DNA from: Flavobacteriales bacterium
GTDB taxonomy: Bacteria > Bacteroidota > Bacteroidia > Palsa-965
Direction of reading: 5' to 3'
Length of the DNA stretch: 64,000 bases
NCBI GenBank assembly: GCA_040377305.1
Contig: JBEIPA010000015.1
Coordinates: 1-64,000 of the forward strand
Positions 4,326-63,294 of the stretch are shown piece after piece. The position numbers and the translations under genes were made by a program. The notes under the pieces are model-generated. The model saw only the letters and a program-made list of their open reading frames with translations, was not told where the DNA came from and did not search any database. The stretch's first letter is position 1; each line of letters opens with the position of its first letter.

Positions 4326-4345
4326 ACGTAAATATACCAATAAGA

Positions 4346-4384: not shown

Positions 4385-4409
4385 AACAGTTGCGCTTAAG
4401 GTTCTGCTC

Positions 4410-5120: not shown

Positions 5121-5353
5121 GTTAGTTAGTTTGTTTTAGTGATGCAAACTTACTGGCACGAACTGAGCCGGGTTGTGAACTCATCGCTGCCGTTCACAGT
5201 TGAAAGGTTGAATAGTTCACGGTTCTATTAGAATTCATCTGAATATCAGCGTTCATCGGAAAATAGTGTGACTTCACATACTCTGAAAAAATGAATCGCG
5301 GACGGTGAACTTTGAACTGAGAACCGTGAACTTGTTATCTTTAGAACCTTCTT

Positions 5354-7002: not shown

Positions 7003-7039
7003 ATCCGTTTTGATCCGCTCGATCCGCTAAATCCGCGTA

Positions 7040-8227: not shown

Positions 8228-8254
8228 TACGCGAAGATAAAGGAACCTCTGCTT

Positions 8255-8397
8255 ATTGCCACTAAGGCGCTAAGGCAATAAGGTTCACTAAGCTTTATGC
8301 AACTTGGTATCTTGCTTATGCTCATTGCCACTAAGGTGCTATGGCATAAGGTTCACTAACCTTTGTGCAACTTAGTATCTTTCTGACTTTGTGGCAT
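8255..8397. repeat. Tandem pair of ~69-bp imperfect palindromic repeats
   Basis: ATTGCCACTAAGG..TAAGGTTCACTAA..TGCAACTT.GTATCTT at 8255 and 8324. Confidence 0.8.
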
Positions 8398-8520
8398 AAA
8401 CTACTGTTTTGTGCACCTTCTCACGCGACTTTTGCAATTCTTGCATGATTCTTTAAACAAGTCAGCAAATCTTGCGCAGAAGCAATGAAGTTCACCCGAG
8501 GTGAAAATGTACATTTGACC

Positions 8521-42500: not shown

Positions 42501-43930
42501 TCGATACAAACGGTGTGAGCTGGTACAACCAGAACTACCTCGGAAGTTCAATGCTGCCCGGATGGAGCGGAACAGGCGGATCTTACTTCCAGTCGCGTTA
42601 CGATCTTTCGATGTTCAACAACTTCCCAACACCGATCCAGTTCCGTTTTGTGTTCAGTGCCGACATGTACAACTTCGCGCAGGTTGATGGATGGGCAATT
42701 GATGATTTCGAATTGTACATGGATGTGAATGTAGCTACAAACACCATCAAGTTTGGTAACACATCTGAACTGCCATTACCGGGAAGCAATTTTGTGAAGA
42801 CGAATATTCAGAACAATGGTACGTTGCCGATTACAGGTTGTAACGCAACACTGAATATTGACGGGAACAACATTGTTACCGACGCGGTGGTATTCTCTCC
42901 GGCATTGCAGCCTGGACAAGCTCGTCAGCACGTGTTCTCACAACAATGGACTGGTGCTTCACCTGGATATCATGACGTTCGTACATGGGTAAGTGCTCCG
43001 AACGGATTGGCAGACACAAATCCGAATGATGATACTACACTGTGGCACATTTCAGTGATGGACACTTTCGCAACTTATCCATACTGTAACAACTTCGAAG
43101 TTGGTAACGGAGTTCCTGCGCTTACAACTATGAACGCACTTGATTTCGTTGACCGCAAGAATAGCTGGGAACAAGGAACACCATCGAAGAACATCATCAA
43201 TACTGCACACGCAGGAACAGGTGCATGGATGACAGATCTTACGTTGAATCACCTGCAGAACGACAGCTCGGGATTATTCCTGCCTGTGTTTGTAGTTGAC
43301 ACAGTGAACTGTTATCACCTCGAGTACTGGACGAATTACATGACACAAGCCAATATGGACGGTGGTGTGATTGAATTCTCTCACGACTATGGTGCAACCT
43401 GGCAGCGTTACGGCAATTTCAACGATCCGCAGTGGTACAACTACAATACCTGTGCTGGACTTGGTGCGGGAACACAACCAAACATCGGTGGAACTGGTGG
43501 TGGTTGGGTATTGCAACAGCGCGATATTCGTTTCCACACTGCGGGACCGGTGATCATTCGTTTCCGTTTTGGATCAAACAGCAGCATTCAGTCAGAAGGT
43601 TGGGCAGTAGATGACATCTGTTTCTCACGTATTCCGCCTTGTACAGTCGGAGTAGAAGAGAACGATATGTCCGGGCTTATCCTCGAAGATGCATACCCGA
43701 ATCCTTCTGGTACTTCAACTACTATCGGTTACAACCTGCCAGAGAATGGCGAAGTGACTTTGGTACTGCGTGATGTACTCGGAAATGAAATCATGATGTC
43801 GCAGTCGAACCAGTCTCAGGGCTATAACCAGTGGACTATCGACGTGAGCGGTCTAGCCGACGGAATTTACTTTTATGAGGTTCAGTTTGGCGACCAGATC
43901 TTAACTAAACGTCTGGTTGTCAGTCACTAA
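39509..43930 (+). CDS. Large T9SS-secreted multidomain protein (MAM-like jelly-roll and CARDB/Ig repeats)
   Basis: Signal peptide ending YAQ; repeated WELG.P / FDFS / DG.RVDY / IDD modules; CTD AYPNP..GIYFY..RLVVSH. Confidence 0.88.
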   Translation: MNKITLLLAGIALSVSTYAQTVVFHENFEVSDSVVASGNPLWIPDLTLQSQGLASTRNTVATNDSSFLITNTFSTVGNTFVILEFDQICKIEFLDIATIWASNDNGVTWIQLTAAEYLGTGSFAGLGNKFNSAAYGSFWLPGLNAAVPSNAWWMTEQFDVSAILGNAPQCKIKFTLKDANANGANSNYGWLIDDLTVVASPSELYPPVISPGPPLWANNVYNFGPYTVNDTITDASGIASATLHYSVNGGPVNNVPMTNTSGNIWSGVIPAMNDSDTVCYSVDAIDASAAANAAVWPSVGCQQFIVHAGITFPYFDNYDGQNDWSDTAVNILSQWELGMPNYGATIGTHSGPNAWDINLSIPYDNNAACRLVSPVFDFSTTLNATLSFWHNYNTENFWDGVRVDYTTDGVTWQVLGIQNDPNGVNWYNALLNSSNQPGWAGSSGGWVKSEYDLAFLNNVVGPVQFRFVFTSDGSVIGDGYSIDDFSILPPFPLDAEAVQVVAPDASSCLPVGNIPLSVSLSNEGSNPLVGPFDIVYILDNGTPVVEQYPGTLAPAVTDTFTFATLLNNTAGAHTLEWFIVYPGDGWSQNDTNSITYTTSPGVTIPYNQDFESGPVSTNDFCLSGTAQGQVQYSTAAGNNSGGGLLFDATSSTGWDWGADTIIASPFYIWAPNISEDQRANARLIVNTSGYTDLVLEFDTKLNYNFADEYTNFRVKVNGTMITPHMRPNFVSTPYDQFRYMLTSFLPAPYLIIDFESSCTYDFQFNGIGVFLDNINIYHPDSLDCGVTTVTTPTSMSMANQAVTVSGVIKNYGTSTLTSIPVAYAVNAGTPVVETWTGTLPPNGTTTYTFTTTFTSPTGQYDLCLWTQLAGDTATWNDTTCVAPVGMQVLAVPYFDDFEGPQVFAADVTYTPSWELGTPVAPLITGAYSGSNAWEVNLNGPYQNNSNEFLYTPFFDFSTATDVEMRFQHWYNADNYSDGGRVDYSTDGGNTWIVLGQQFDTNGVSWYNQNYLGSSMLPGWSGTGGSYFQSRYDLSMFNNFPTPIQFRFVFSADMYNFAQVDGWAIDDFELYMDVNVATNTIKFGNTSELPLPGSNFVKTNIQNNGTLPITGCNATLNIDGNNIVTDAVVFSPALQPGQARQHVFSQQWTGASPGYHDVRTWVSAPNGLADTNPNDDTTLWHISVMDTFATYPYCNNFEVGNGVPALTTMNALDFVDRKNSWEQGTPSKNIINTAHAGTGAWMTDLTLNHLQNDSSGLFLPVFVVDTVNCYHLEYWTNYMTQANMDGGVIEFSHDYGATWQRYGNFNDPQWYNYNTCAGLGAGTQPNIGGTGGGWVLQQRDIRFHTAGPVIIRFRFGSNSSIQSEGWAVDDICFSRIPPCTVGVEENDMSGLILEDAYPNPSGTSTTIGYNLPENGEVTLVLRDVLGNEIMMSQSNQSQGYNQWTIDVSGLADGIYFYEVQFGDQILTKRLVVSH

Positions 43931-43951
43931 TAGTCAGTAAATGAAACCATG

Positions 43952-43979
43952 GAAAGACCTGTTTTCGGACAGGTCTTTC
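43952..43979 (+). terminator. Hairpin terminator with UUCG loop
   Basis: GAAAGACCTGT-TTTCGG-ACAGGTCTTTC. Confidence 0.7.
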
Positions 43980-44064
43980 TGCATTGTCAGGATTCTGTTC
44001 TGGCAGTGATGAGAGTGTATCTTTTCACCTGCGGATCGTTATAAGTGCAACAAAGCAGTTGCCA

Positions 44065-44679
44065 ATGCGGTCCATAACAATGAAACCCCCACATATGGAG
44101 GTTGTCTCAAAATACCATTTTACCAGGGAGGACATGCAGCAAGAGCAGATCCTGGTGGAAGCGGCGAAGGCGGACCCTGAGCAGTTCAGGGGTCTGTATA
44201 GCCGGTATTACGAGCGCATCTTCCTGTACGTGTGGCAGAGGTTAGACGACAAAGAAGTTGCACATGATGTGACTTCGCAGGTGTTTCTGAAAGCGATGCA
44301 GAACCTGTACAAGTACGAATTCAAAGGCGTTCCGTTTGCTTCGTGGTTGTATAGGATCGCAAAGAGCGAAGTGTACACCGTGTTGCGTAAGCAACAAACA
44401 CAACGAACTGTGAATATCGATTCCGTTGGAATGGGTGACATGGTTCAGGAAATGGAAGAGGATCAGTATGCAGAGTGGATGCCTGTTTTGTCGGCTGCGG
44501 TCGCAGATCTGGAGGAGGACGATTTGCAGATGATCGAAATGAGATTTTTTGAGAAGCGACCGTTCAAAGAGATTGCAGACATTCTCGATATCACGGAGAA
44601 CAATGCGAAAGTGAAAACGTACCGCATCCTCGAAAAGCTCAAAAAAATTCTGATTCAAAAAAAGAAAAACCGGGCGTAA
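44065..44679 (+). CDS. ECF-type RNA polymerase sigma factor
   Basis: F..LY.RY, A.D.TS.VF.KA, F.SWLYRIA, EIA.IL.I...N.K....R; start uncertain. Confidence 0.92.
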   Translation: MRSITMKPPHMEVVSKYHFTREDMQQEQILVEAAKADPEQFRGLYSRYYERIFLYVWQRLDDKEVAHDVTSQVFLKAMQNLYKYEFKGVPFASWLYRIAKSEVYTVLRKQQTQRTVNIDSVGMGDMVQEMEEDQYAEWMPVLSAAVADLEEDDLQMIEMRFFEKRPFKEIADILDITENNAKVKTYRILEKLKKILIQKKKNRA

Positions 44680-49050: not shown

Positions 49051-50331
49051 TTATGAAGCGAAGAGTTTGTACTTCTTCATCATCGTATTCACCTGCTTTT
49101 TCACCGCTGCAATTTTCTTTTCGTCTTCATGGTTTGCGAGCACCAGGTCAATAAGTTCTACGATTTTCGGAATCTGTTTTTCTTTCAGTCCGCGTGAAGT
49201 AATTGCAGGAGTTCCGATACGAATTCCGGAAGTAACAAATGGAGACTTGTCATCAAACGGAACCATATTCTTGTTCACCGTGATGTCCGCTTTTACCAAT
49301 GCGTTCTCTGCCTGTTTGCCGGTGATGTTCTTGTTACGAAGATCAATAAGCATACAGTGGTTGTCTGTTCCGCCTGAAACGACATGGTAACCACGTTTCA
49401 TGAATTCATCAGACATCACTTTTGCATTCTTCACCACCTGAATTGCATACTTGAGGAATCCTTCAGAAAGCGCTTCGCCATAAGCAACTGCTTTAGATGC
49501 AATCACGTGTTCGAGCGGTCCGCCTTGTGTTCCCGGGAAAACAGCTCCGTCAAGAACAGCGGACATCATTTTGATTTCACCTTTCGGCGTTTTGAGTCCC
49601 CAAGGATTTGGAAAATCTTTACCCATCATGATCATTCCACCACGAGGTCCGCGCAAAGTTTTATGCGTAGTTGTTGTTACGATATGACAATGCGGAAGCG
49701 GATCGTTCAATATTCCACGTGCAATCAATCCTGCCGGGTGAGAAATATCTGCCATTAACAATGCGCCAACGCTGTCTGCTATTTTGCGCAGGCGTACGTA
49801 GTCCCAATCGCGGGAATAGGCAGAAGCACCGCAGATAATCATTTTCGGTTTTTCTTCTTTGGCTTTCGCTTCTACTTTCTTGTAATCGATGCGACCGGTT
49901 TCTCTTTCTACACCGTAGAATGTAGCGCGGTATAATTTCCCGGAGAAGTTCACAGGAGATCCATGCGTAAGGTGTCCGCCATGCGATAAATCAAAACCAA
50001 GAATGGTATCACCCGGATTCAGGCAACCGAGCATTACTGCAGCATTCGCCTGTGCGCCTGAGTGCGGTTGTACGTTTACCCATTCCGCGTTGAACAATTG
50101 CTTCGCACGGTCAATGGCAAGCTGTTCTACTTTATCTACAATTTCACATCCACCATAATAGCGCTTTCCGGGAAGTCCTTCTGCATATTTATTGGTGAGT
50201 ACAGAGCCCATTGCTTTCATCACCTGATCGCTGACGAAATTTTCAGATGCAATAAGTTCGATTCCGCTTTTCTGGCGGTGAAGTTCTTCAGAAATGTACT
50301 TGAAGATGATGGTGTCTTTTTTCATAGTCAA
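49051..50331 (-). CDS. glyA: Serine hydroxymethyltransferase
   Basis: [41 protein letters not shown]. Confidence 0.98.
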
Positions 50332-50379
50332 AGTGAATCAGCCATTGATGTTGGGCAGGACAAAAGTAGCAAACTGCCT

Positions 50380-50844
50380 TTATAACCTGCGGTGTACGAG
50401 GAAAGATGCAATCAGAATGATGAGCAGGACAGGGCTTTCTATCATCCCGGCCAGGAAACGTGCAATAGGGTAGGCGGCGTCACGGAAACCAATCAACCAT
50501 CCAATTACGAAGAACAGGAACGACAATAGGAAGAGGGCTGCGTAGGCGTATAGCGTGATTTTGTTGTAAGCTCTGCTTTTGAACAGCAGGTGTACAATCA
50601 GAATGGATAAACCGGCGAAGATCACGCTGAAGACTAACGTGATTGGCCATTTCAACCAATACAGTGATTCGTAGGAAAAGCTCCCGAGCCACTGCATCAC
50701 AGGGTGAACATGCGAATCCGGCGAGTTATAGTAGGTTACACGTATCTGTTCATTCCAGTTCAGGAAAACGAATTCCCTGAAAAATCCGGTGCAGACAAAC
50801 AACACCAGCAGTGCTGCTACGATCGGTTTAGTTCGCTTGTGCAT
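50380..50844 (-). CDS. Exosortase-associated membrane protein
   Basis: Four TM segments; overlaps the exosortase stop. Confidence 0.65.
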   Translation of the reverse strand: MHKRTKPIVAALLVLFVCTGFFREFVFLNWNEQIRVTYYNSPDSHVHPVMQWLGSFSYESLYWLKWPITLVFSVIFAGLSILIVHLLFKSRAYNKITLYAYAALFLLSFLFFVIGWLIGFRDAAYPIARFLAGMIESPVLLIILIASFLVHRRL

Positions 50845-51367
50845 CCGGAACAGCAGGTGAGAATTTTTTTATCCAGACGTACCACAGTAGAAAAATGAAC
50901 CCGTACATCAAGGTCTGGAACAGGTAAGTATGATTGAAGTCCAGCATTTCGGGGCTCTTTTGCGTTACAATGCAGAGTGCCACAATACGGATGATGTTCA
51001 TGATGTGAATGAGCGTAATACCCACCGGTATATACCAGAGCTTATGCTTCCACTTGCCTGGATAAGCAATGATGAATAAAGAGAAGAGTGCGAACAGGGT
51101 TAGTCCGTTGCATGGATCACCGATCCACAAACCATTTGTTCCCTGAATTCCGATGGTGCGTATTGTTTCGTGAGCGCCCTGAAATGTTTCGAAGCCCATG
51201 GTATCGAGCAACCAGATCGCCCAGAGGGAAGAATCGTTGATCACCAGCGTATCGAGAACACCCCATGGATGGATGACCCATTCGTACAGCATTCGCCATG
51301 CTGCATACATTCCGAGAAATAAGAGGAGGAAGCGGAGTATCCGTTTTTCGCGCGCTTCAAATTTCAT
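50828..51367 (-). CDS. Exosortase (short Bacteroidota XrtF/XrtX type)
   Basis: Triad motifs IGDPCNG (Cys), NIIRI (Arg), FNHTY (His) among TM helices. Confidence 0.88.
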   Translation of the reverse strand: MKFEAREKRILRFLLLFLGMYAAWRMLYEWVIHPWGVLDTLVINDSSLWAIWLLDTMGFETFQGAHETIRTIGIQGTNGLWIGDPCNGLTLFALFSLFIIAYPGKWKHKLWYIPVGITLIHIMNIIRIVALCIVTQKSPEMLDFNHTYLFQTLMYGFIFLLWYVWIKKFSPAVPDAQAN

Positions 51368-51372
51368 AAGGG

Positions 51373-51606
51373 TTAGTCTTGTCCCTTATTGGATTTGAAA
51401 GAATTGTAAAGCTTCTTCCCGCCGAAAATTGCAGCAGCACCAATAGCAACAACAATTCCGCCGTCAACCGGAATACAAGGAGGTGGCCAGCATGGCGGAT
51501 CACCAGGAGGTGGTGGCGGAGGAGGTGGTTGACCATGAAGTGCAGTAACTCCTGCAACAATCACAATAACCAAAAGGGCGAGTATCTGATAGTGACGTTT
51601 CGACAT
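51373..51606 (-). CDS. Tiny PID-CTERM-type sorting-signal protein
   Basis: Signal peptide, then QPPPPPPPGDPPCWPPPC, IPVDGG, hydrophobic helix and KK; 5 nt upstream of the exosortase. Confidence 0.82.
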   Translation of the reverse strand: MSKRHYQILALLVIVIVAGVTALHGQPPPPPPPPGDPPCWPPPCIPVDGGIVVAIGAAAIFGGKKLYNSFKSNKGQD

Positions 51607-51615
51607 CGTAGTAGC

Positions 51616-54258
51616 TTAGTAATAAATTTTCTTCGTAGAAATTTCATTGCCCTTTTGAATACGGACAAGATAAATTCCGTGTGCATCAGGATTGTCAAGA
51701 ACAATGGTCTGTGTACCCACGTTCATTGTTTTTTCGCCCATCACCATACGACCACTCAGGTCGAACATGCTTACGGTTACGATTTCTTCAACTTCAAATT
51801 CAAACTGCGCAAAGATCATCTCTCCGCTTACGTACACGTTTGTTGCAGCATCAAGTGAAGTTGCAGTAGTCTGCAAATCGAATGTGCAGTCGTTCGTACG
51901 CTCGAAGTGCAGCACGAAGTTTCTTGTTGCACCCATTTCAGCTTCTTCAAACTGATACGTGTCGTATTGGTTCAGGTTGATACGTGCGCCGGTTTCCAGG
52001 TCTTCCAGCCAAGCACAGTTGTATTCAGTAACGGTGCTGAGATCTTTGAATGTAAGAATCTGTGTACCCGGAGTAGAAGTAACAACTGCAACCGGAATGG
52101 TCAGATGATCCTGAGTAGTTCCGATATTATTCAGAATGAATTGCTCTCCCAATGAATTTTGCGTGTACACATGCGTTGCGTTTTCGTACGGAGACGCGAG
52201 GTATGGCAAATCGTAAAACATATCATACGACTCATCGCCGGCCGCATCCAGCTTAACGACTGTTTCTTCGCCAAGGCCGTTCACTGCGTTGCCCGCTTTA
52301 ATCCGGATCTGGTTACCGGAGAGCACACGCATCACGTTCGGATTTGCCACTAAGCTCTTACAAGATTCCGTGAACGTAATGTTTCCACCGGTTGAAGCAA
52401 TACACATGAAGCCTTGTGCTGCTGCAATAGTTCCACCATTAGGGTTTGTTGCATACGATCCGTTTTCCTGGAGGATCACAAAGTTCGGGCTCAGCGATGC
52501 AGAAGATGCTGCTGCAACACTTGCATACGTAACGGGACAAGCATAAGGGTTACCCACGAGGTTGTAACCTGCACCTGCACCACCAGCAGTAACTGCACGG
52601 TTTACAGTATTGAAATTTGGAGTACCACGTGTATCGAAAACCAGTGGAGCTGTCAGTGAACTAACATTATCTGCCATCCAGACCATGATACCTCTTCCAG
52701 GTGTAAGTGGTGTTGCGGTAGTTGTAACGTTTGTGTATGTGTTTGTTGTTTCAGAATAGGTGCGAACCGAACGGAAAACAGGGCAGCACGCATTCCCATC
52801 GTTACCGCCAACACCGCTCATATAAAATCGTGTGTCGTTATCCCAATCAGCAAGAGTAGTTGCTGCTACAGGAGAAGAGACATACTGCCAATAAGCAGTT
52901 GCAGGACCATTCACGAAAGTCTGAACGACCCATCCTGTACCGGTTAATGAAGCTAACGCGCCCAATGGGGCAATGCGTGCGTAAGTTGTAGTGCCCGTTG
53001 CAGAAAGGATAACAGTTCCGAATGCCGACGGACCGAATGAGCCTGTGGTGACAGTAAGTATGTTCGAGATGGTCTTAATGAAATTGACCGTTATAGAAGA
53101 CGTGTTGGAAATCGTGAGGTTGTAAAAAACCGTACTCGAAACACCATCTATAGCCTGAGGAGTGCTACCTAACATACGAACAGTACCTTGTCTCGCAGTG
53201 AAGTTGCCATTGTCCTGCCAGGTACCCGAAAGTGTGATCTGATGATTGGCAACACCCACATCGAGTGTTCCTGAAACGATTGCGAGTGAACCTGCACAAA
53301 TAATTGCACGCGCTAATGTTACGGTGCCCGACGACATAATCGTGAGGTTGTTGAAGCCTTCACCAGCAAGATTCGCACTTTGAATCACCTGGCTTGAGCC
53401 GATCATATTAACGCCAATCTGATTGGTGCAGTTAATACCTGCGAAGTTTATCCAGTTGCCACCCACATTTAAAAACTGGTTTGCACAGTCAACTGTTGTT
53501 CCGGCAAAAATACGGAAGTCGCCATTCACGGTTAGATTTCCACCTGACCATGTTTTTGTGCTTGAACCTGACGAAAGTAAGTCGAGATGGTGATAGGTTT
53601 GCAACATGATTGGATTCGCAGAGTTTCCGTTGTATCTCATGCGATTGCCAGAAATTGCAAAGTTGTAGTTAGAAGAATTTCCAAGCAATGGTTGTGCAAC
53701 AGAAAATGTACCAGTGGACCAATTGGTGAATAAACCTGTGCCCGAAGGTGAAATTGAACCTCCGGTAAGAGCCACGTTACCGCGGTTTGTAAGGCGGGCA
53801 TTATCCTGAATATAGAAGTAATTTACTTTGAGAATATTCGAGCCCGGAGCAATAGAGACGTTACAACCATTCATGAAATTCCAGTTGCCACCGTTGGTGA
53901 AAGTGCCGGCAATGGCAATCGTAGCCGGGTTGCCGTAGAAGTACATGTGGCTTACGCTTAGTGTAACACCGTTGCGGATGAAGTCACCACGCACCCGAAT
54001 ATTTCTGCTGTTGAAATTCAACGTACAGCCCGCGTTGATGATGAGGTCAACACAATCAGAAAGTGCCTGCAATGTGATTGTGTGATTACCTTGAATCGTT
54101 ACATCGTCATCCAGATCCGGAATATTATCTGCGTCGAAACCAGTATGTGTCCACGAACCTGATGCGTTCCAGTTGCCTGTGGCAAATGAAGTGAAAGTTG
54201 CTGCATTCAGATTCAACGCAAAAAAGACGAAAAGGGCTACTTGTATAATTCGATTCAT
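51616..54258 (-). CDS. T9SS type-A cargo protein (G8-like N-terminus, beta-helix-like repeats)
   Basis: GNW....W / DDVTI..H.I; repeated GN/G.W.N units; WQYVSSPV; YNLVGNPY; CTD FDLSGR..GIYLV..KKIYY. Confidence 0.85.
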   Translation of the reverse strand: MNRIIQVALFVFFALNLNAATFTSFATGNWNASGSWTHTGFDADNIPDLDDDVTIQGNHTITLQALSDCVDLIINAGCTLNFNSRNIRVRGDFIRNGVTLSVSHMYFYGNPATIAIAGTFTNGGNWNFMNGCNVSIAPGSNILKVNYFYIQDNARLTNRGNVALTGGSISPSGTGLFTNWSTGTFSVAQPLLGNSSNYNFAISGNRMRYNGNSANPIMLQTYHHLDLLSSGSSTKTWSGGNLTVNGDFRIFAGTTVDCANQFLNVGGNWINFAGINCTNQIGVNMIGSSQVIQSANLAGEGFNNLTIMSSGTVTLARAIICAGSLAIVSGTLDVGVANHQITLSGTWQDNGNFTARQGTVRMLGSTPQAIDGVSSTVFYNLTISNTSSITVNFIKTISNILTVTTGSFGPSAFGTVILSATGTTTYARIAPLGALASLTGTGWVVQTFVNGPATAYWQYVSSPVAATTLADWDNDTRFYMSGVGGNDGNACCPVFRSVRTYSETTNTYTNVTTTATPLTPGRGIMVWMADNVSSLTAPLVFDTRGTPNFNTVNRAVTAGGAGAGYNLVGNPYACPVTYASVAAASSASLSPNFVILQENGSYATNPNGGTIAAAQGFMCIASTGGNITFTESCKSLVANPNVMRVLSGNQIRIKAGNAVNGLGEETVVKLDAAGDESYDMFYDLPYLASPYENATHVYTQNSLGEQFILNNIGTTQDHLTIPVAVVTSTPGTQILTFKDLSTVTEYNCAWLEDLETGARINLNQYDTYQFEEAEMGATRNFVLHFERTNDCTFDLQTTATSLDAATNVYVSGEMIFAQFEFEVEEIVTVSMFDLSGRMVMGEKTMNVGTQTIVLDNPDAHGIYLVRIQKGNEISTKKIYY

Positions 54259-54289: not shown

Positions 54290-54361
54290 CAAAGTTACTC
54301 AATTTATACGCAATTAGCCAGAATATGGTTTAGCCCTCCGCACGGGATTTTGTTAACTTTA
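54290..54361. promoter_or_regulatory. Back-to-back divergent -7 boxes
   Basis: TAACTTTG on the minus strand (54290-54297) and TAACTTTA on the plus strand (54354-54361). Confidence 0.6.
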
Positions 54362-54369: not shown

Positions 54370-56784
54370 ATGAAAACGAGCGCCGGCATTATCAGTCAAG
54401 GGGATCTAACGCGGATTTGGGCTATTGTCCGCAAAAACTGGTGGATTGTGGTGTTGATAAGTGCCGTTGGGTTCGGAATAGGGAACCTCTACACCTACAA
54501 GCTTACGAACACGTATGGGGCAACCACCCAGATTTTGTTGCGTTCCAACGACGAAATCAAGCAGGGTAGCATCATTTCTGATAATCCCTATTACGGTCCA
54601 ACAATCAAAACATATATCGATAATTCGAACGAAAGGCGAATTCTTACCTCGTACGATCTGATTCTGGAGACAATTGAGCGCCTTGACTTCGACGTATCCT
54701 ACTTTATCGTTGGACGTGTTCGTACCGATGAATTGTTCCAGGGACTTCCATTTGATGTTACTGTGGGTGAAATGGACCGGGAATTCTACGAGCAGAAAAT
54801 GAGTTTTAAGATAGTAAACGACAAGGAATACACACTCAAGTACGTGAAGGGTGGACAGGATGTTGAGGTAAAAGGAGTGTTTGGGAAAGACTTTAAGAAT
54901 GACGATTTCCATATTCTGGTCAAGCTTAAAAAATCGGGTGAACAACTGCAGGCTGCAATTGGTGCGGACTACCTGATTCAGGCCCATTCGATCGGTACTT
55001 TGGTATCGAAGTTCCAGGGCTCAATGAAAGTAGAATCTCCGGAATACACGAACATCCTTGAGATAAGTGTCGAAGATGAAATTCCGGAGCGGGGTGTCAT
55101 GTTTCTGGATACGCTCATACAGGTTTACGTGGAGAATTCATTGGAGCAACGTATGGCTGTCAATGAAAATACAGTTTACTTCATCGACAGGCAATTGTTG
55201 GAGGTTACCAGTATTCTGAACAATATTGAAGACTCGCTTCAAACTTATCGTGAAGGGAATGTGATTATTAATCTTGAGGACGAAGGACAACAATTCTTCA
55301 GTCAATACATGGGATTTAATAACAGAAAACGAAGCATGCAATTGCAAATTCAGGGACTGAAAGATTTGCAGGAATATATGAACACCAACAAGGACCCTCA
55401 ATTCCTTCCACCGGCAGCATTTTTCTCCTTTGGTGATCCCTATCTCGATCGGAGTATTACCCAGTTATATGGTCTGCAAATCAGTAGGGTCTCAATTCTT
55501 AGCACAGGCACGGAAGCAAATCCGGATGTAGTTGCACTTGACTCAAATATTACGCAACTCAAACGCAATATGAACACCTACATCAATAATAACCGGTTGG
55601 CTATTATTGAGAATATTAAAGCGACGGAATTGCAGATCGATACTTCGATTATGGAGTTGCAGGAAATTCCTCTCAAGCAAAGAGGCCTGAAAAACATTAA
55701 CCGCGAACTTCAGGTTCACGAGAACATGTACCTCTTTCTTCTGCAAAGAAAAGCAACGACCATTATTGCGCGTGGAGGTATTCTTCCCGAGACAAAAATT
55801 ATCGACAGGGCAAGAAATATCGGAGTGGTTCGTCCGAACAGAACCATGATCAATTATTACTTTGCTGGTGGCGCTTTTATTCTGTCGCTTATTATTGTTT
55901 TCATACGCATCATGTTCTTCGCGCGAATTGAATCGTACGAAGAATTGAAAGCAGCTACCGATCTGCCGGTCATCGGAGAAATTATTTATACCCCGCTCGC
56001 CGAGGATATCAAGCTTGTTGTGGATAGTGATCCGAAATCGCCGGTGGCAGAATCGTTCCGTACGGTGCGTACGAATTTACAGTACATGCTTGGGGATCGG
56101 GATAAAGGTGTAATTGTAATTACTTCCAATAGTCCGGGAGAAGGAAAAACATTCTGCTCAATCAATCTTGCCGGAATTCTGGCGAAGGGTGGCAAGAAAA
56201 CGATTCTGTTGGAGCTGGATCTCCATAAGCCACGTGTACATAAGGGACTGGGAATTGAGCACAAGATTGGATTCAGTACGCTGGCTATCGGAAAGTCGGA
56301 ACTGAAAGATATAATCATTCCAACCCAACTCGAAAATCTGGACGTGATTCTCTCCGGACCATTACCTCCGAATCCATCTGAAATTGTAGTATCGAAAGTG
56401 ATGACTACAGTTCTCGATTATTGTAAAGCCAACTATGATTTTGTAATCATCGATACACCACCGGTTGGACTCATTACAGATGCGCTTGTGCTGATGAAGC
56501 ATTCCGACGTCAGCATTTTCGTATTGAACACGAAGGCTGCATCGAAGACTGCATTGCAGAACGCTCATGAAATTGTACAGATGAACAAGCTTTCACATTT
56601 TGGGTTCATCCTCAACGGTGTGAAGCGTAAGAAATCGAAGTACTACTACAATCGCTATGCTTATGGTTACGGAAGTTACGGCGGTGGTTATGGATCTTAC
56701 GGGGGAGAAGGCTCGTACGGTGGTTATGGCTCATACGGTGACAAAACCGGAAAGAAAGCGCCTTTTGGCAAGAGAAAGAACTAG
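54370..56784 (+). CDS. wzc: Polysaccharide co-polymerase / BY-kinase (Wzc-like)
   Basis: Two TMs flanking a coiled-coil; ESFR.VRTNL, PGEGKT, DLHKP, IDTPP; C-terminal Tyr cluster. Confidence 0.92.
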   Translation: MKTSAGIISQGDLTRIWAIVRKNWWIVVLISAVGFGIGNLYTYKLTNTYGATTQILLRSNDEIKQGSIISDNPYYGPTIKTYIDNSNERRILTSYDLILETIERLDFDVSYFIVGRVRTDELFQGLPFDVTVGEMDREFYEQKMSFKIVNDKEYTLKYVKGGQDVEVKGVFGKDFKNDDFHILVKLKKSGEQLQAAIGADYLIQAHSIGTLVSKFQGSMKVESPEYTNILEISVEDEIPERGVMFLDTLIQVYVENSLEQRMAVNENTVYFIDRQLLEVTSILNNIEDSLQTYREGNVIINLEDEGQQFFSQYMGFNNRKRSMQLQIQGLKDLQEYMNTNKDPQFLPPAAFFSFGDPYLDRSITQLYGLQISRVSILSTGTEANPDVVALDSNITQLKRNMNTYINNNRLAIIENIKATELQIDTSIMELQEIPLKQRGLKNINRELQVHENMYLFLLQRKATTIIARGGILPETKIIDRARNIGVVRPNRTMINYYFAGGAFILSLIIVFIRIMFFARIESYEELKAATDLPVIGEIIYTPLAEDIKLVVDSDPKSPVAESFRTVRTNLQYMLGDRDKGVIVITSNSPGEGKTFCSINLAGILAKGGKKTILLELDLHKPRVHKGLGIEHKIGFSTLAIGKSELKDIIIPTQLENLDVILSGPLPPNPSEIVVSKVMTTVLDYCKANYDFVIIDTPPVGLITDALVLMKHSDVSIFVLNTKAASKTALQNAHEIVQMNKLSHFGFILNGVKRKKSKYYYNRYAYGYGSYGGGYGSYGGEGSYGGYGSYGDKTGKKAPFGKRKN

Positions 56785-56823
56785 GGTCATTACAGCAACT
56801 TACAGAGATAAACCCATATAAAA

Positions 56824-57687
56824 TTGCTCGAGAATCAACATTTAAAAACACGTGTTTATTCACCTGGGGGAACCGGTGACAATTTCTTCGCTATCTGGAG
56901 AAGTATTATTCGCGAGTTCTGGTTAAGTCATGGGTTGGGTTTTCGGCTTGCTTCCAGAAACATAAGCGCACGTTACCGTAGAAGTTTGTTGGGTTTCCTT
57001 TGGGCGTTCCTTCCACCAATCGTTACCTCAATTGTTTGGATCGTGCTTAATGATCAGAAAATTGTACAGTTTGGTAAAACAGATATTCCTTATCCACTGT
57101 TCGTTGTTTGCGGCACCACATTGTGGCAGATGTTCACTTCTGCAGTTGTCATTCCGATCCAAACGGTCAATGCCAGTAAGTCAATCTTGTCGAAGATCAA
57201 CTTCCCACGTGAGGCGATTCTGATTAATGCTTTTTACGAGATCTTATTTAACGTAGTAATTGGAATGATTATCATCGGCGCAATGTTGATTTATTCCGGA
57301 ATTAATCCGGGTTTTAGTGCGCTTCTATATCTGCCTTTAATTCTTCAGCTCATTTTAATTGGGTTCACGGTAAGCTTGTTCCTCCTTCCGCTTTCTCTAC
57401 TTTATTCCGACGTTCAGTATTTATTGCCAACGGCATTACAATTTGTCATGTACCTGACTCCCGTTATCTATCCTAAGCCAGTACTCACGTCATTCGAGTG
57501 GCTGTTCAAGTACAATCCTGTAGGATTAACGCTTCAATATATACGGGGCGGCATTACAAATTCTGTGGTTGATGTCACGACTTTGGATTTTGTCACGGTT
57601 GGCTTAGCAACACTTGGTTTATTCGTAGTGGGAGTTGTGTTATTCCGGATTACAATGGAAGTTTTGATAGAACGGATGGGTAGCTGA
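56824..57687 (+). CDS. wzm: Polysaccharide ABC transporter permease
   Basis: RY..S.LG.LW....P, KINFPRE, YLTPVIYP, NP. Confidence 0.9.
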   Translation: MLENQHLKTRVYSPGGTGDNFFAIWRSIIREFWLSHGLGFRLASRNISARYRRSLLGFLWAFLPPIVTSIVWIVLNDQKIVQFGKTDIPYPLFVVCGTTLWQMFTSAVVIPIQTVNASKSILSKINFPREAILINAFYEILFNVVIGMIIIGAMLIYSGINPGFSALLYLPLILQLILIGFTVSLFLLPLSLLYSDVQYLLPTALQFVMYLTPVIYPKPVLTSFEWLFKYNPVGLTLQYIRGGITNSVVDVTTLDFVTVGLATLGLFVVGVVLFRITMEVLIERMGS

Positions 57688-58886
57688 TGATACAGAATAG
57701 AGACATACTTGTAAAAGTTCAGGGTGTTGGCAAGAAGTTCAGCAAAGACCTCAAAAAGTCATTGCGATACGGATTGTTTGATGTCTGTAAGTCTGTAGTT
57801 GGATTGGGTTCACGTGAGCGCTCTGTACTGCGTAAAGATGAGTTCTGGGCAGTTCGTGATGTAAGCTTTGAACTGAGACGAGGTGAAGTTCTGGGACTGA
57901 TAGGACACAATGGTGCAGGGAAGAGTACACTTCTGAAAATGCTCAACGGATTGATCAGACCCGATGAAGGATCGATCACGATGCATGGACGGGTAGGAGC
58001 TTTGATTGAGTTGGGCACAGGTTTTAATCCGGTGCTTACAGGACGTGAGAATATTTATGTCAATGGACAAATTCTTGGGTTCTCGAAGAAAGAAATTGAT
58101 GGGAAACTAGAGTCTATTATTGACTTCTCGGAGATTCGTGAATTCATAGACAGCCCGGTTCAGAGTTATAGTAGCGGAATGAAAGTTCGTTTGGGATTTG
58201 CAGTGGCCTCGCAAATGGAACCTGACGTTCTCATTCTTGACGAGGTGCTTGCTGTTGGCGACATCGGCTTTCGCGGCAAATGCATGAAAGTAGTTCATGA
58301 AATGATGAACAGAGCAGCGGTAATTTTCGTGTCACATTCAATGCCTGTTGTAAACAGATATTGCAATAGAGCGATGATGCTTGCAAAAGGTGCAATGATG
58401 ATGGACACATATGAAGTCCAACTAGCTATTGACAAGTATCTGAGTTCTTTCGAAGGCAACAATTCAAATATTTTTTCTTCGGGACAAGTGGAGTTGCAGA
58501 AGTTTGGATTCAATGGCATTGAACTACAAACCGGAAAAGGTGAAGTGCCGGTATTTGACCACGCCGAAATCCGTATTAATCTGAAGTCTTTGGATGAGCG
58601 ACTGTCAAAGGTTCGAATCCGACTGAACTTCATCAATAAAGATTTACTCATTGTTGCTTCGGTCATTTCGGAAGAGATAGCTGTTGAACAAGGGCTGATA
58701 AATTATTACTTCAAAGCAGGACCGTTTAATGCTCAGCCGGGTATGTACAAAGTTTCATTGGTTGTTTTTGGGGAAAGCTTCAGAGACGCGCTATTGATAC
58801 ATGATTCTGTATACAACATTCAGGTAACAGGAGAGAAAGATTACGGCGGACATGTTATTATCCTTAAAACTGAACCTATTTCTTAA
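57687..58886 (+). CDS. wzt: Polysaccharide ABC transporter ATPase with C-terminal Wzt_C-like domain
   Basis: GHNGAGKST, YSSGM..RL, ILDEVLAVGD, VSH; ~150-aa C-terminal extension. Confidence 0.93.
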   Translation: MIQNRDILVKVQGVGKKFSKDLKKSLRYGLFDVCKSVVGLGSRERSVLRKDEFWAVRDVSFELRRGEVLGLIGHNGAGKSTLLKMLNGLIRPDEGSITMHGRVGALIELGTGFNPVLTGRENIYVNGQILGFSKKEIDGKLESIIDFSEIREFIDSPVQSYSSGMKVRLGFAVASQMEPDVLILDEVLAVGDIGFRGKCMKVVHEMMNRAAVIFVSHSMPVVNRYCNRAMMLAKGAMMMDTYEVQLAIDKYLSSFEGNNSNIFSSGQVELQKFGFNGIELQTGKGEVPVFDHAEIRINLKSLDERLSKVRIRLNFINKDLLIVASVISEEIAVEQGLINYYFKAGPFNAQPGMYKVSLVVFGESFRDALLIHDSVYNIQVTGEKDYGGHVIILKTEPIS

Positions 58887-58893
58887 TCGCACT

Positions 58894-59484
58894 ATGAACA
58901 AGAACGAAATATTAAAAGCAGCTCTGGCCTGCCAAGGGTGGGGAACGGAAGGTCAGCTTTCGGTAATGTATGATTTGGTGCAGAAGCATGCACAAGTCGA
59001 CGGAGATATACTTGAGATCGGTTCAGCTTGGGGCCGCAGCGCAGTTATGTTTGGGTTGTCTTCACCCAAAAAGCTCTGGTCAATCGATCCGCATTCTGGT
59101 GGTCTTCGTTACATTCTTAATAACGAGAATCAGAATTCGTATGATGAATTTCTTGGCAACTTAAAGAAGAATGGTTTGATTGATAAAGTGGGAGTCGTTA
59201 AGGCTACTACCAAAGATGCCCGCGATCAGCAACTGATTCCGGCGGACGTTAAATTCGCATTTGTATATATTGACGGACTGCATACTGCGGAAGGCGTAGA
59301 AATTGATATTGATTTTGCATGGCCTCGTTTAACTCCGGGAGCAGTTGTTGCCTTTGATGATTACTTTGTTCCGGGCGTTGTGGATATGAAAGAGATGATC
59401 GATGCGAAAGTTAAAGCGTATGGTCAAAAGCTTATCCTGGACGATAAGGTCAAGCTCGCATATTTCATTTACACAAAGGACTGA
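58894..59484 (+). CDS. Class I SAM methyltransferase (Methyltransf_24-like)
   Basis: LEIGS..GRS, YIDG.H, L.PG.V..FDDY. Confidence 0.88.
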   Translation: MNKNEILKAALACQGWGTEGQLSVMYDLVQKHAQVDGDILEIGSAWGRSAVMFGLSSPKKLWSIDPHSGGLRYILNNENQNSYDEFLGNLKKNGLIDKVGVVKATTKDARDQQLIPADVKFAFVYIDGLHTAEGVEIDIDFAWPRLTPGAVVAFDDYFVPGVVDMKEMIDAKVKAYGQKLILDDKVKLAYFIYTKD

Positions 59485-59509
59485 GTTTTCTCTCTCTTAA
59501 AGGAAATAA

Positions 59510-60679
59510 ATGAAAATGCAGTTGACGGTAGATGAGCACAAGACGACAATTGCTAATGGGAAGGACACCGGCAATATCCCGATACATCTTCCTGGCTTAA
59601 ATGGTTTACGTGCCATCGCGGCGATCAGTGTCCTTTTTGCACATCTTACGATATCACTAAAACGTTTTGGTTTAAACAGCTTCATTCTGGGTACTGATCC
59701 GAATGGAAAGCCCTTTGGAGCTTTTGTTGCAGGAATTGGAGTGACCATTTTTTTTACGCTAAGTGGTTTTCTGATCACCTATCTGCTTCTCCATGAGAAG
59801 CCGATGAATATCAACATAAGACACTTTTACATTCGCAGGGTTTTAAGAATCTGGCCGTTGTATTTCTTATATCTTGGAATTGCTCTGCTTACATTGAAGC
59901 TTTATTCCACTGAATATGATGCAGGCGGTTTAGGATGGTATCTGTTTTTAGGCGCGAATATTCCGTTTATTTTCGGAGGACAAATTCCTTTGATAGGACA
60001 CTACTGGTCGTTGGGTGTTGAAGAGCAATTCTACTTGTTCTGGCCATGGATTGTAAAAAAAGTCAAAGAGCAGTGGCTAATTTTTGTATTCGTAACGCTT
60101 GCCGGTCTTCTCATAGCTGCAAAGTGTTACTGCAGGTATTATGAAATAACGACTCACGACAATTTACCTTTTTACTTTTTGTATATCAACCGTTTTGATT
60201 GCATGATTCTAGGCGCGATTGGTGCATTAGTGTATTTCAGGCGCAAGGAGAAATTACTCCGTATTGTTTGTCATCCTGTGTCTCAACTGATCAGTTGGGG
60301 CGTAATACTTTATTTTTTCCTTAACCGGCATCTGGGAATGCTGTTTAGTCACGAGGTTGCATCAGTTGCAACGGTATTTCTGATCATTGCGCAGTCTGAA
60401 AAAAGAAATCGCATTATTAATCTGAACAATGCCGTGTTTGATTTACTGGGCAAAATATCTTACGGCATTTATGTCATTCATCCTTTGATAATTTTCTTCA
60501 GCGTTTCTCTTATTGGAAATCTTGAAGATACGTGGTCGAGCTATGTATTGGTCTATTTGGGAATTACGGGAGTAACGCTGCTTGCTTCTTATGCGTCTTA
60601 TCAGTATTTTGAACGAAAATTCCTGAAGGTAAAACACAAATTCACCACGGTATTGAGTTCGGGCAACCGGGTAAACTAA
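59510..60679 (+). CDS. Acyltransferase family 3
   Basis: LNGLRAIA, FF.LSGFLIT, FYIRR.LRIWP, WSL.VEEQFY, ISYG.Y..H. Confidence 0.9.
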   Translation: MKMQLTVDEHKTTIANGKDTGNIPIHLPGLNGLRAIAAISVLFAHLTISLKRFGLNSFILGTDPNGKPFGAFVAGIGVTIFFTLSGFLITYLLLHEKPMNINIRHFYIRRVLRIWPLYFLYLGIALLTLKLYSTEYDAGGLGWYLFLGANIPFIFGGQIPLIGHYWSLGVEEQFYLFWPWIVKKVKEQWLIFVFVTLAGLLIAAKCYCRYYEITTHDNLPFYFLYINRFDCMILGAIGALVYFRRKEKLLRIVCHPVSQLISWGVILYFFLNRHLGMLFSHEVASVATVFLIIAQSEKRNRIINLNNAVFDLLGKISYGIYVIHPLIIFFSVSLIGNLEDTWSSYVLVYLGITGVTLLASYASYQYFERKFLKVKHKFTTVLSSGNRVN

Positions 60680-60686
60680 TTACAAC

Positions 60687-61331
60687 ATGAGCAACGAAAT
60701 AAAATACTACAGTCAATACGAGCAGGATAAGTTCCTTTCTGAAAATATATTCAAAGGAAAGACCGGATTCTTTATTGAAATCGGAGCTGATGACGGTGTG
60801 GATAAGAGCAATACTTACTTTTTTGAACTGAGTGGCTGGAAAGGTTTGTGCATTGAGCCTAGTCCTTCTCGCTTTGAGCAACTTAAGAAGAACAGAAAAT
60901 GCGAATGTATCAACATGGCAGTTTCCTCTTCCGAAAAGCAAGTGGAGTTCATGGACATTACAGGTTATGGCAAAGGCTTGTCAGGAATTGTTGATCACTA
61001 CGATGCGCGTCACGTTGACAGGATTGCAAGAGAGACAACGAATAATGACCAGACAATCAGCAAGAAGAAAGTAATCGTGAACACTGCTCGTTTAGATAAT
61101 CTGCTGGCTGATAGAAATATTACTGCTGTAGATTATTGCAGCATTGATGTAGAAGGCAGTGAGGTAGAAATTCTTAAGTCAATCGATTTCAATCAAACCT
61201 GGTTTGATGTATTTACAATCGAAGACAATTACCAGACGCCGGCAATCCGTGAAATTCTTGAGCTAAATAACTTTGAGCTGATTCACAAGATTGGACCAGA
61301 TCTCGTTTACCGGAATAAGAAGCGCATGTAA
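60687..61331 (+). CDS. FkbM family methyltransferase
   Basis: YSQ..QD, FIEIGA.DG...SNT, IEP, SIDVEG.E. Confidence 0.9.
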   Translation: MSNEIKYYSQYEQDKFLSENIFKGKTGFFIEIGADDGVDKSNTYFFELSGWKGLCIEPSPSRFEQLKKNRKCECINMAVSSSEKQVEFMDITGYGKGLSGIVDHYDARHVDRIARETTNNDQTISKKKVIVNTARLDNLLADRNITAVDYCSIDVEGSEVEILKSIDFNQTWFDVFTIEDNYQTPAIREILELNNFELIHKIGPDLVYRNKKRM

Positions 61332-61336
61332 CTGCT

Positions 61337-62431
61337 TTATTCTGATTTACCTTGCGCCCTTAAGACTCTTTTCTTCCTGTATCGTTCCAGTGGGTCTGTT
61401 ATAAATCGGATCAACAGGAAACATGCGACCAACGTAATTCCCAATGCGAATTCAGCCTGGTAAGACATATTCCAACCGAACTTACCAATTACTTTCATCG
61501 CAACGAAAAGTGCGGTGATATGCGTGATATAGATCAGGTACGAATATTCCCCAATGTAATTGTCCAACTTGTTTTTCTTGGTGGCTTCAAAAATTAACGG
61601 AAGCGACACCATGATCAGGATATACAATGCGAGCTCTATGTACGGAAACTTAATTGCGTTGAAGCTCAGGACTACAGCCACGATCAGTGCAATAATACCA
61701 TAAGCAATCCTGTGATCAGTGATATTGAAACGAAGTTGTTTAGACCAGCGATAGGATAGGATCCCTGCGATGAAGAAAATGAGCTCGAAGGGAAAGAACC
61801 GGTGTGTCCATGGATCGAAATTGAATCCATTCATATAGGCAATTAAGCGTAAACCTAAAGTTGCGGCACCCAACACGAGAAGCCAGGAAGTTTTGAGTCG
61901 AACCAGAAAAGGTGCAATCAGGTAAAACATCAATTCAATACTTACGGTCCATGCCTGTGGAATTAACAGGTAGGTATGTACGCGTGGATCAGTTTGACGG
62001 AAATCACGTGCGAACTGAAGCATACCTTCCTGGTCAAAGCCCGTAAACAATGACGCATCAAGTCCGAAAATGCCCGTGTTCGAAGCAAACAGATAAGCCT
62101 TAGAGCTCCAGTGCAAAGGCGCATCACTGAGGTAGCCGTTGAGTTTGAAATAATCGCCGGTCATCACACCGCTTACGACGCAAATGATCAGCGTTGCAAT
62201 AAGGGTCACCCAATAGGCAGGATACAATCGCAGAAATCGATTCGTAATGAAAAGACGGTAACCTTTTTCGATTTGCAGATACTTTTCGCTGAGCACGAGA
62301 GCCATGTAGAATCCCGAAATGATGTAAAATGATTCCACCGCAACGCGTCCACCGGTCATGTGCAATCCAAACAAAGGTTCGCTGTGGGTAATAATTACCG
62401 CAACAGCAAGGATAAACCGGATAAGTCCCAT
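61337..62431 (-). CDS. Acyltransferase family 3 (inverted within the locus)
   Basis: G..RF.LA..V...H, FY.ISGF.M, NR.LRLYP, AWT...E..FY, SY..Y..H. Confidence 0.88.
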   Translation of the reverse strand: MGLIRFILAVAVIITHSEPLFGLHMTGGRVAVESFYIISGFYMALVLSEKYLQIEKGYRLFITNRFLRLYPAYWVTLIATLIICVVSGVMTGDYFKLNGYLSDAPLHWSSKAYLFASNTGIFGLDASLFTGFDQEGMLQFARDFRQTDPRVHTYLLIPQAWTVSIELMFYLIAPFLVRLKTSWLLVLGAATLGLRLIAYMNGFNFDPWTHRFFPFELIFFIAGILSYRWSKQLRFNITDHRIAYGIIALIVAVVLSFNAIKFPYIELALYILIMVSLPLIFEATKKNKLDNYIGEYSYLIYITHITALFVAMKVIGKFGWNMSYQAEFALGITLVACFLLIRFITDPLERYRKKRVLRAQGKSE

Positions 62432-62545
62432 ACTGTTTGCTAAAATAGCGGAATGCTCTTTAAGTCGGTCCGATTTTGTTTTTCTATCAACAATAGGGGG
62501 TATATTAATGACTATTTTTGTTTGTGATACACTAATACTTCACCG

Positions 62546-63286
62546 ATGAATTTATTTTCTGTAATCAGGAAAGCTATTCTGAAAGAAGAGCAAGACACGG
62601 ACCGTAAGCAGCCCGAAAATCGTCGCGCTAACATGGATATCGTCAATCAGTATATTGCTGATCCTGAGTTTCCTTACCTGGTAAGTTTTTCCAGAACCGG
62701 GAGTCACTGGTTGCGAATGATGATGGAACTTTATCTGGGAATGCCATCACTCAAATTGCTTTTTTTCTCGGAAACCAACACAACATCCCGTTATTCTTGT
62801 TTGCACACCCATGATCTTGATTTTACGGTAGAGGCGCGTAACGTAGTTTATCTCTATCGTGAGCCGGTAGAAACGATTTTTTCACAAATGACTTACCACG
62901 AACAGGATTTGCAGAACGACGACCTTGTTGATGCGTGGGCAGATCATTATGCCCGTCATGTGAAGAAATGGGTGATTGATGAAAAATTTACTGCGCAAAA
63001 GATTGTTTTGACTTACGAAGGACTTAAGTCCGATATCGGATCAGAGTTTCAGAAGATTTCCGATTTTTTCGGTGTACCATTCGATGCCGATAAAGCCGCA
63101 AAGGCTGCAGCGAGTGTATCGAAAGAAAAGATCAGTGAGAAGACGAAGCACGATCCGAAAGTGATTAATCTGGACAAAGATTACAGTAACCGAAGGGAAG
63201 AGTTCAAGAAGCGATACAGTGCGCGTATCTATGAGCTTATTCGTACGCGTTACCCGGAAGTGGCAACATTGTTTGAGCAACACTAA
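62546..63286 (+). CDS. Sulfotransferase domain protein
   Basis: SFSRTGSHWL (5'-PSB-like), YLYREP...I.S (3'-PB-like), YE.L. Confidence 0.8.
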   Translation: MNLFSVIRKAILKEEQDTDRKQPENRRANMDIVNQYIADPEFPYLVSFSRTGSHWLRMMMELYLGMPSLKLLFFSETNTTSRYSCLHTHDLDFTVEARNVVYLYREPVETIFSQMTYHEQDLQNDDLVDAWADHYARHVKKWVIDEKFTAQKIVLTYEGLKSDIGSEFQKISDFFGVPFDADKAAKAAASVSKEKISEKTKHDPKVINLDKDYSNRREEFKKRYSARIYELIRTRYPEVATLFEQH

Positions 63287-63294
63287 GTAACTCC

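Follow-up and report, generated by a model that had tools for sequence, protein, structure and literature searches.

A four-gene exosortase X locus of a Flavobacteriales bacterium with a 77-residue PID-CTERM precursor, a type IX secretion cargo gene and a divergent wzc locus

A Cys/Arg/His triad has been named for both exosortases and archaeosortases (10.1101/2023.06.07.544157, available text), and the sole member of this superfamily with experimental evidence, as far as the available text of the sources goes, is archaeosortase A (ArtA), in which C-terminal cleavage is coupled to lipid anchoring (PMC7157517; 10.1101/2023.06.07.544157). Among the bacterial enzymes, the placing of exosortase genes at exopolysaccharide loci together with a tyrosine kinase is a known theme of the PEP-CTERM/XrtA (EpsH) system, and a genome with this system usually encodes many PEP-CTERM substrates, which are proteins with genuine domains (10.1101/2023.06.07.544157). 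Exosortase X (XrtX) and its PID-CTERM tag are database-curated and without a published function in the literature that we searched (supplements not covered), which yielded no biological paper on PID-CTERM, XrtX or exosortase X; the text matches to "XrtX" were mathematical symbols. To our knowledge, the acceptor of exosortase substrates has not been established in any bacterium. In this study, we explored an XrtX/PID-CTERM locus in a stretch of 64,000 nucleotides (nt) from a Flavobacteriales bacterium (assembly GCA_040377305.1, contig JBEIPA010000015.1, positions 1 to 64,000; hereafter the window), where four genes encode a cargo of the type IX secretion system (T9SS), a 77-residue peptide precursor, XrtX and an XrtX-associated membrane protein, and where a sugar-polymer locus headed by wzc runs in the opposite direction (table 1). 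The model that we tentatively prefer, and to which we give a little less than an even chance, is that the precursor would be cut at its IPVDGG motif and that the product of about 19 residues would pass to an acceptor in the cell envelope, likely working with the probably co-transcribed T9SS protein and the wzc locus.

The enzyme, the tag and the partner protein of this locus each belong to a curated NCBIfam family. With the enzyme above its cut-off, the locus represents a known kind; tag and partner fall slightly short of theirs, as weighed further on. The curated cut-offs are 23 bits for TIGR04183, 26 for NF046080, 170 for NF046081 and 75 for NF046082. XrtX reaches 184.6 bits against NF046081 (E 1.3e-54), the runner-up model being XrtF with 91.9 bits, and 62.9 bits against the TIGR04178 signature, whereas the cargo scores 33.7 bits against TIGR04183, the T9SS type A tail, over residues 820-880. 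Cys86, Arg127 and His146 of XrtX are invariant in all eight aligned Bacteroidia homologues. Pfam matches among the four proteins were limited to the T9SS tail and, weakly, the exosortase, with none for the 77-residue peptide or for the XrtX-associated protein; the position of the latter directly after XrtX matches related loci, where a homologue is found too. The four minus-strand open reading frames (ORFs) are closely packed: 9 nt separate the first from the second and 5 nt the second from the third, and the third and fourth share 17 nt. An earlier account of this DNA, a sequence-only reading made without database searches, had described just such a packing of a T9SS cargo, a peptide with a PID-CTERM-type tail and an exosortase with Cys/Arg/His motifs; each of these calls is borne out, and the enzyme can now be named as exosortase X.

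The locus can be compared with five described systems. With the curated XrtX/PID-CTERM system it shares an enzyme above cut-off, the gene order peptide, XrtX, partner, and a tail made of P-[IV]-D-G-G, a helix and a basic cluster; it differs in that the peptide of the window is of a poly-Pro/CWPPPC type, with two Cys that the peptides of another Bacteroidota class lack, and in copy number and setting, with one copy beside wzc in the window against 1-12 copies, scattered and not linked to wzc, in the other class. A homologous enzyme and a sugar-polymer locus with a tyrosine autokinase/chain-length protein are also found in the PEP-CTERM/XrtA system, yet the window has one substrate without any domain, with a motif that is PVD (PID type) and not PEP; no XrtA model is among the 17 families listed for the enzyme of the window. 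Archaeosortase A, with its PGF-CTERM substrates in Haloferax volcanii, has a homologous Cys/Arg/His enzyme and provides the model for the transfer step proposed below, but it is archaeal, acts on large S-layer glycoproteins and uses an archaeal-type lipid. The MYXO-CTERM/myxosortase system likewise has a short tripartite C-terminal signal with a Cys close to the membrane helix; according to the available text, however, its invariant Cys lies inside the signature motif and its signal is cut by glutamic intramembrane proteases (10.1101/2023.06.07.544157), whereas the window encodes an exosortase, and the Cys residues of its peptide lie outside the PID motif and are lacking in most family members. 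Finally, sorting by the T9SS C-terminal domain and the sortase PorU is, like the XrtX system, a Bacteroidota system for sorting by C-terminal signals, and both of its elements are present here, the type A domain on the cargo and PorU in the genome (1342.8 bits, cut-off 420), but it works at the outer membrane and with unrelated machinery. The literature searched describes no link between a T9SS cargo and an exosortase substrate; here gene pairing by itself suggests one.

The precursor is the element on which our interpretation turns. Between the likely signal peptidase site, which falls between HG and Q, and the IPVDGG motif stand 19 residues with a Pro run of 8, QPPPPPPPPGDPPCWPPPC (HG|Q-PPPPPPPPGDPPCWPPPC-IPVDGG in context), and the tripartite C-terminal tail, IPVDGG-IVVAIGAAAIFGG-KK, is read from the translation and can be aligned with other family members. 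The sequence-only reading was correct that removal of the signal peptide and the sorting tag leaves a very small product; its core of 18 residues with seven Pro was not borne out, since the string it gave was one Pro short. To follow the coding behaviour of the frame we used four close relatives, from metagenomes and one metagenome-assembled genome, whose XrtX is 78-81% identical to that of the window. Across the stretch of 25 codons running from Gln26 through PVDGG they show 10-13 synonymous and 0, 0, 0 and 3 non-synonymous differences, against 7-15 non-synonymous changes in the 25 codons of the signal peptide and 2-8 in the helix and tail. As the changes in the core are almost all synonymous, the frame appears to be translated, and its core is under strong purifying selection; this pattern, together with a place directly upstream of XrtX in every one of the 20 loci surveyed in the order of the window, makes the ORF more than a chance frame. 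Conservation of the peptide, which the sequence-only reading had treated as decisive, is therefore observed.

Within its own genome the precursor stands alone. When the PID_CTERM hidden Markov model (HMM) was run against the complete 5.18-Mb genome, it gave one clear match, the peptide ORF, at 25.5 bits, followed by a partial match of 15 bits inside a 627-residue frame, and a regular expression applied to all six frames (P-x-D/E-G-G-type motif, helix and basic residue) returned the peptide as the single true match genome-wide. The peptide is the only recognisable PID-CTERM protein, and the only recognisable XrtX substrate, in the genome, so that the genome-wide count of tag-bearing proteins, to which the sequence-only reading had pointed, comes to one. 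The same economy is seen in the family at large. XrtX was found above cut-off in 64 of 401 sampled Bacteroidota genomes, most of them in one family of another class and a few in the class of the window. The PID_CTERM model, applied to 30 genomes with an XrtX or XrtX-like match, gave 110 matches, 104 of them above cut-off and up to 12 in a single genome; 103 of these 104 lie in stop-to-stop frames of at most 183 residues and the remaining one in a frame of 995 residues. Such above-cut-off matches occur in 27 of the 30 genomes, against two of 20 that had no XrtX match at E 1e-20. Elsewhere the sequences consist of a signal peptide (mostly ending in A, with Q following), 8-20 Pro-rich residues, PIDGG, a helix and a basic cluster, and the peptides of relatives in other families score 28.8-52 bits. 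Thus, a tiny substrate is the rule for the curated PID-CTERM family and not a peculiarity of the operon in the window: the proposal of a minimal substrate holds as far as size is concerned, yet as an oddity of this operon it was overstated, and the large PID-CTERM proteins that might instead have been the real substrates are nearly absent (one of 104 above 183 residues).

In the order to which the window belongs, XrtX is present in 31 of 35 genomes (21 of the 23 of good quality; 30 of 34 when genome G408 is left aside). Our survey of this order covered 20 loci from 20 XrtX-bearing genomes, G408 not among them. The peptide gene lies directly upstream of XrtX in all 20, and CWPPPC is invariant in all of them as well as in a metagenome locus, L077, whose XrtX is 41% identical; the length of the Pro run varies from 2 to 8. 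A scan of metagenomes with a single XrtX protein gave six loci. Six loci of the order (L090-L094 and L098) have PVNGG, PVNSG or PVDNG in place of PVDGG and a helix that ends in single K or R residues, with CWPPPC unchanged. Genomes of the class of the window in which XrtX scores at or near the cut-off also have a single peptide directly upstream of the enzyme, with two Cys just before a P-I/L-D motif; in G087, G103, G107 and G363 the sequence C-G-x-P-F-x-P-(x)-C takes the place of CWPPPC, and the motif is PIDGG or, in G363, PLDSG. Cys is missing from the mature part of the peptides in the other class and in families f14 and f2. The descriptive additions made by this lineage are the poly-Pro/CWPPPC subtype, the constant place beside wzc and a shared cargo family.

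The cargo is composed of a signal peptide, a beta-solenoid-like N-terminal half, a C-terminal beta-sandwich module and the type A C-terminal sorting domain (residues 820-880). The N-terminal half was modelled with regular short strands at a predicted local distance difference test (pLDDT) score of 96.3, and its PDB matches are weak, of the beta-helix kind and none at E <= 0.001; the C-terminal half, at pLDDT 84, shows beta-sandwich domains with generic matches only (template modelling score 0.17 or less). The ESM Atlas returned only unnamed Bacteroidota clusters for the cargo, and 123 homologues were found. From the shape of the model alone, the protein looks like an adhesin or a glycan-binding surface protein. 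Its pairing with the peptide is widespread: a cargo homologue lies directly upstream of the peptide in 16 of the 20 order loci, in G363 (E 2e-36, nearly full length), in G255 and, more weakly, in G279. Across the phylum, 19 of 24 peptides (23 fetched loci, both classes) lie at most 500 nt downstream, on the same strand, of a T9SS-tailed ORF. When 20 of the upstream ORFs were tested 18 matched TIGR04183, and the upstream ORFs share 255-450 aligned residues (mostly 320-450), far beyond the 70-80 residues of the tail. A binding prediction for cargo residues 22-882 with peptide residues 26-77 scored 0.01 against a mark of 0.32, a result that counts neither for nor against binding. The possibility that Cys residues of the peptide track those of the cargo was considered and rejected. 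The last 400 residues of the cargo hold 3-7 Cys beside Cys-pair peptides and 0-2 beside Cys-free peptides, and the T9SS partners in the other class likewise have 0-2; since the T9SS ORFs of the genome itself (n=228) already have a median of 7 Cys in this segment, the pattern reflects lineage-wide usage.

Several observations on T9SS genes in and around these loci may be added. A cargo paralogue of 1617 residues with a T9SS tail (contig C45 of the genome of the window, about 55712-60565, plus strand; 24-32% identity) is not followed by a PID-type peptide gene. In L037, from genome G316, two tandem PID-CTERM peptide genes stand downstream of one T9SS-tailed ORF. In L066, from G363, a T9SS protein of 1884 residues is encoded on the opposite strand between xrtX and the gene of the XrtX-associated protein (3481-9135, plus strand), and its C-terminal 550 residues are 53% identical to the cargo upstream of the peptide. 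The three loci of family f10 (L063, L064 and L065) have no T9SS-tailed gene upstream of the peptide; in all three a conserved ORF of 158-171 residues follows the gene of the XrtX-associated protein, and next comes a mutually homologous protein of 1014-1383 residues, directly in L063 and L064 and after an extra 78-residue ORF in L065. Pfam and family searches gave nothing useful for either of these f10 proteins. In the window itself, the stretch 39509-44679 (plus strand) encodes a further T9SS protein of 1473 residues, with InhA-like MAM, CARDB and CBM56 domains, followed by a sigma-70 family factor resembling those of extracytoplasmic function type.

On the other side of the operon, Wzc scores 164.3 bits against TIGR01007 (cut-off 108.05) and matches the Pfam families Wzz (38.8 bits, above cut-off), GNVR (25.1 bits, slightly below the cut-off of 27.7) and AAA_31, whereas the XrtA-associated models TIGR03018 and TIGR03007 are matched only below their cut-offs (116.3 against 230.65 and 68.2 against 278.85 bits, respectively). 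Its C-terminus (56690-56784, plus strand) forms a Gly/Tyr/Ser-rich tail of unusual length (YYYNRYAYGYGSYGGGYGSYGGEGSYGGYGSYG...), which presumably represents the autokinase's tyrosine cluster. A wzc gene is present in 19 of the 20 order loci, the twentieth stopping at a contig edge; it is directly divergent from the peptide gene in L084, L086 and L095. Divergent wzc genes are also seen in G087, G103 and G107 (family f10) and in G363 (f18), and in G279 genes for Wzm and Wzt follow the XrtX-like module. The linkage to T9SS and wzc genes, which the sequence-only reading had likewise made a point on which it would stand or fall, is thus conserved to the extent given by these counts and those of the preceding survey (16 of 20 and 19 of 24 for T9SS, 19 of 20 for wzc). 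From Wzt to the end of the window (58852-63999) Pfam recognises two methyltransferases, two acyltransferases, a sulfotransferase and a GT10 glycosyltransferase. At the opposite end of the operon, glyA (serine hydroxymethyltransferase; 49051-50331, minus strand) follows the gene of the XrtX-associated protein, as it does in 19 of the 20 order loci and in G363.

As to transcription, the motif TAnnTTTG, which we take to be the Bacteroidota -7 consensus, has 31 matches in the window on both strands, and about 0.03 would be expected on the operon strand of the 111-nt spacer between the operon and wzc, where a candidate box is found (table 1). This box is the sole intergenic match on that strand ahead of the operon genes. 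Another match lies inside the cargo gene (53505-53512) and none before the peptide gene; glyA has its own box (50361-50368, minus strand) in the 48-nt gap that precedes it. Terminator-like and sigma-70-like sites inside the operon were not found above chance. A look for RNA runs covering this stretch yielded none. The arrangement of these sites suggests a four-gene operon read from the candidate promoter before the cargo gene, with glyA transcribed separately.

Table 1. Features of the XrtX/PID-CTERM locus and of the adjoining sugar-polymer locus, in coordinates of the window.
Feature	Position	Strand	Details and basis
T9SS surface protein (cargo)	51616..54258	-	880 aa (amino acids) from ATG at 54258 (882 aa from TTG at 54264)
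PID-CTERM precursor	51373..51606	-	77 aa; NF046080
Precursor parts			signal peptide residues 1-25 (likely cut between HG and Q); core QPPPPPPPPGDPPCWPPPC 26-44; IPVDGG 45-50; hydrophobic helix; KK; tail
Coding stretch of the likely mature peptide (19 residues, CWPPPC Cys pair included)	51475..51531	-	translation and conservation
Exosortase X (XrtX)	50828..51367	-	179 aa; NF046081
Predicted catalytic residues of XrtX	Cys86 51110-51112; Arg127 50987-50989; His146 50930-50932	-	alignment
XrtX-associated membrane protein	50380..50844	-	154 aa; NF046082
Candidate promoter -7 box TAACTTTG	54290..54297	-	32 nt upstream of ATG 54258; within the 111-nt region shared divergently with wzc
Wzc-type polysaccharide co-polymerase/tyrosine autokinase	54370..56784	+	TIGR01007; first gene of the sugar-polymer locus, divergent from the operon
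Wzm-like permease	56824-57687	+	ORF map; counterparts in L066 and L070 match galactan Wzm/Wzt models
Wzt-like ATPase	57687-58886	+	ORF map; tblastn matches in relatives

According to our preferred model, the precursor would be exported by the Sec pathway and cut by signal peptidase before Gln26, a site proposed because of the A-Q junctions of relatives, and Gln26 may then be cyclised to a pyroglutamate (pGlu) cap, in line with the Q-rule of Bacteroidetes (PMC5837995 and PMC10653852, available text). The C-terminal helix would tether the peptide with the KK pair in the cytoplasm, and XrtX, with Cys86 as the predicted nucleophile, would cut at or near IPVDGG and so remove the helix-KK anchor. 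The resulting peptide of about 19 residues, probably with a disulfide between Cys39 and Cys44, would be handed to an acceptor; by analogy with archaeosortase A, the transfer would be to a lipid or a glycan rather than to water. The gene pairing suggests that the peptide acts jointly with the T9SS protein and that, in this lineage, the wzc polymer takes part as well. A number of our findings weigh against this model. The sequence data are equally compatible with release by hydrolysis. The 77-residue peptide scores 23.8 bits against NF046080, slightly below the cut-off of 26 (25.5 in the six-frame search), and the partner protein 72.8 bits against NF046082, slightly below 75. The Asp of the motif is replaced by Asn in four of the 20 order loci, and the KK pair is absent in six, namely these four together with L090 and L098, so that the sorting signal tolerates more variation than the name implies. 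In L084, L086, L095 and the metagenome locus L077 the N-terminal Gln is replaced by Ala, which weakens the case for an essential role of pGlu. In the other class, wzc lies within 1.5 kb in none of 28 XrtX loci, and the wzc link is thus not family-wide. The T9SS pairing fails for five of the 24 peptides (loci L043, L044, L054, L055 and L062; all three f10 genomes included). The genome also contains at least 228 T9SS-tailed ORFs according to our own profile, and at least 150 according to the curated model; one adjacency alone therefore proves little, but the pairing of 19 of 24 peptides, taken with the homology shared by the upstream proteins, is not a matter of chance.

These points bear differently on the other explanations that we considered. 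A more elaborate version of transfer would have XrtX fix the C-terminus of the peptide to a lipid or to the polymer made by way of wzc, after which the upstream T9SS protein would be tied to the surface by docking or ligation, each pair amounting to an adhesin with a custom anchor; we regard this as unlikely. It is also doubtful, in our view, that XrtX is a plain protease and that the peptide is freed, unanchored, as a periplasmic or extracellular oligopeptide, for instance a signal, a chaperone-like binder or a redox or metal-binding loop. A product of about 19 residues with an invariant CWPPPC loop does have a size typical of released peptides, and the choice between transfer and hydrolysis by exosortases is described as unsettled in the available text of 10.1101/2023.06.07.544157; yet duplication has affected the peptide genes and T9SS genes together, with up to 12 matches per genome and 19 of 24 sampled peptides behind a T9SS-tailed ORF, which fits a stoichiometric partner better than a diffusible signal, and the homologue ArtA is tied to lipid anchoring (PMC7157517, available text). 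Rather improbable is an arrangement without any cut, with the 77-residue protein serving as a single-pass inner-membrane micro-subunit whose Pro-rich periplasmic tip would regulate or scaffold XrtX, Wzc or the transit of the T9SS protein. Although the helix and the basic tail are kept everywhere and the gene is tightly coupled to those of two membrane proteins, with wzc adjacent, the most conserved parts are the core and P-[IV]-[DN]-G, which sits at the edge of the membrane where signals of the exosortase type are recognised, the codon comparison given above shows drift in the helix and tail, and the presence of the peptide tracks an enzyme with an intact Cys/Arg/His triad. That the peptide is incidental or a decoy, the true XrtX substrates being other, larger proteins with a divergent signal, we consider very improbable: the peptide does fall below the PID_CTERM cut-off, and an HMM of 25 positions and a regular expression could miss divergent signals, but the genome has a single match, the gene immediately precedes XrtX in all 20 order loci and 103 of 104 matches in the family are also mini-proteins.

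Overall, the small size of the product has a practical consequence for the model that we prefer: with a whole substrate of about 19 residues, the cut site and the acceptor could both be read from one mass measurement on the processed peptide. In the literature searched we found no account of an exosortase, type IX secretion and a surface polymer acting together; the pairing of the peptide with one T9SS family and its placement beside wzc suggest, from gene order and conservation alone, that the three cooperate. If the custom-anchor arrangement, which we hold unlikely, were true, the mini-peptide would be a missing link between two sorting systems.

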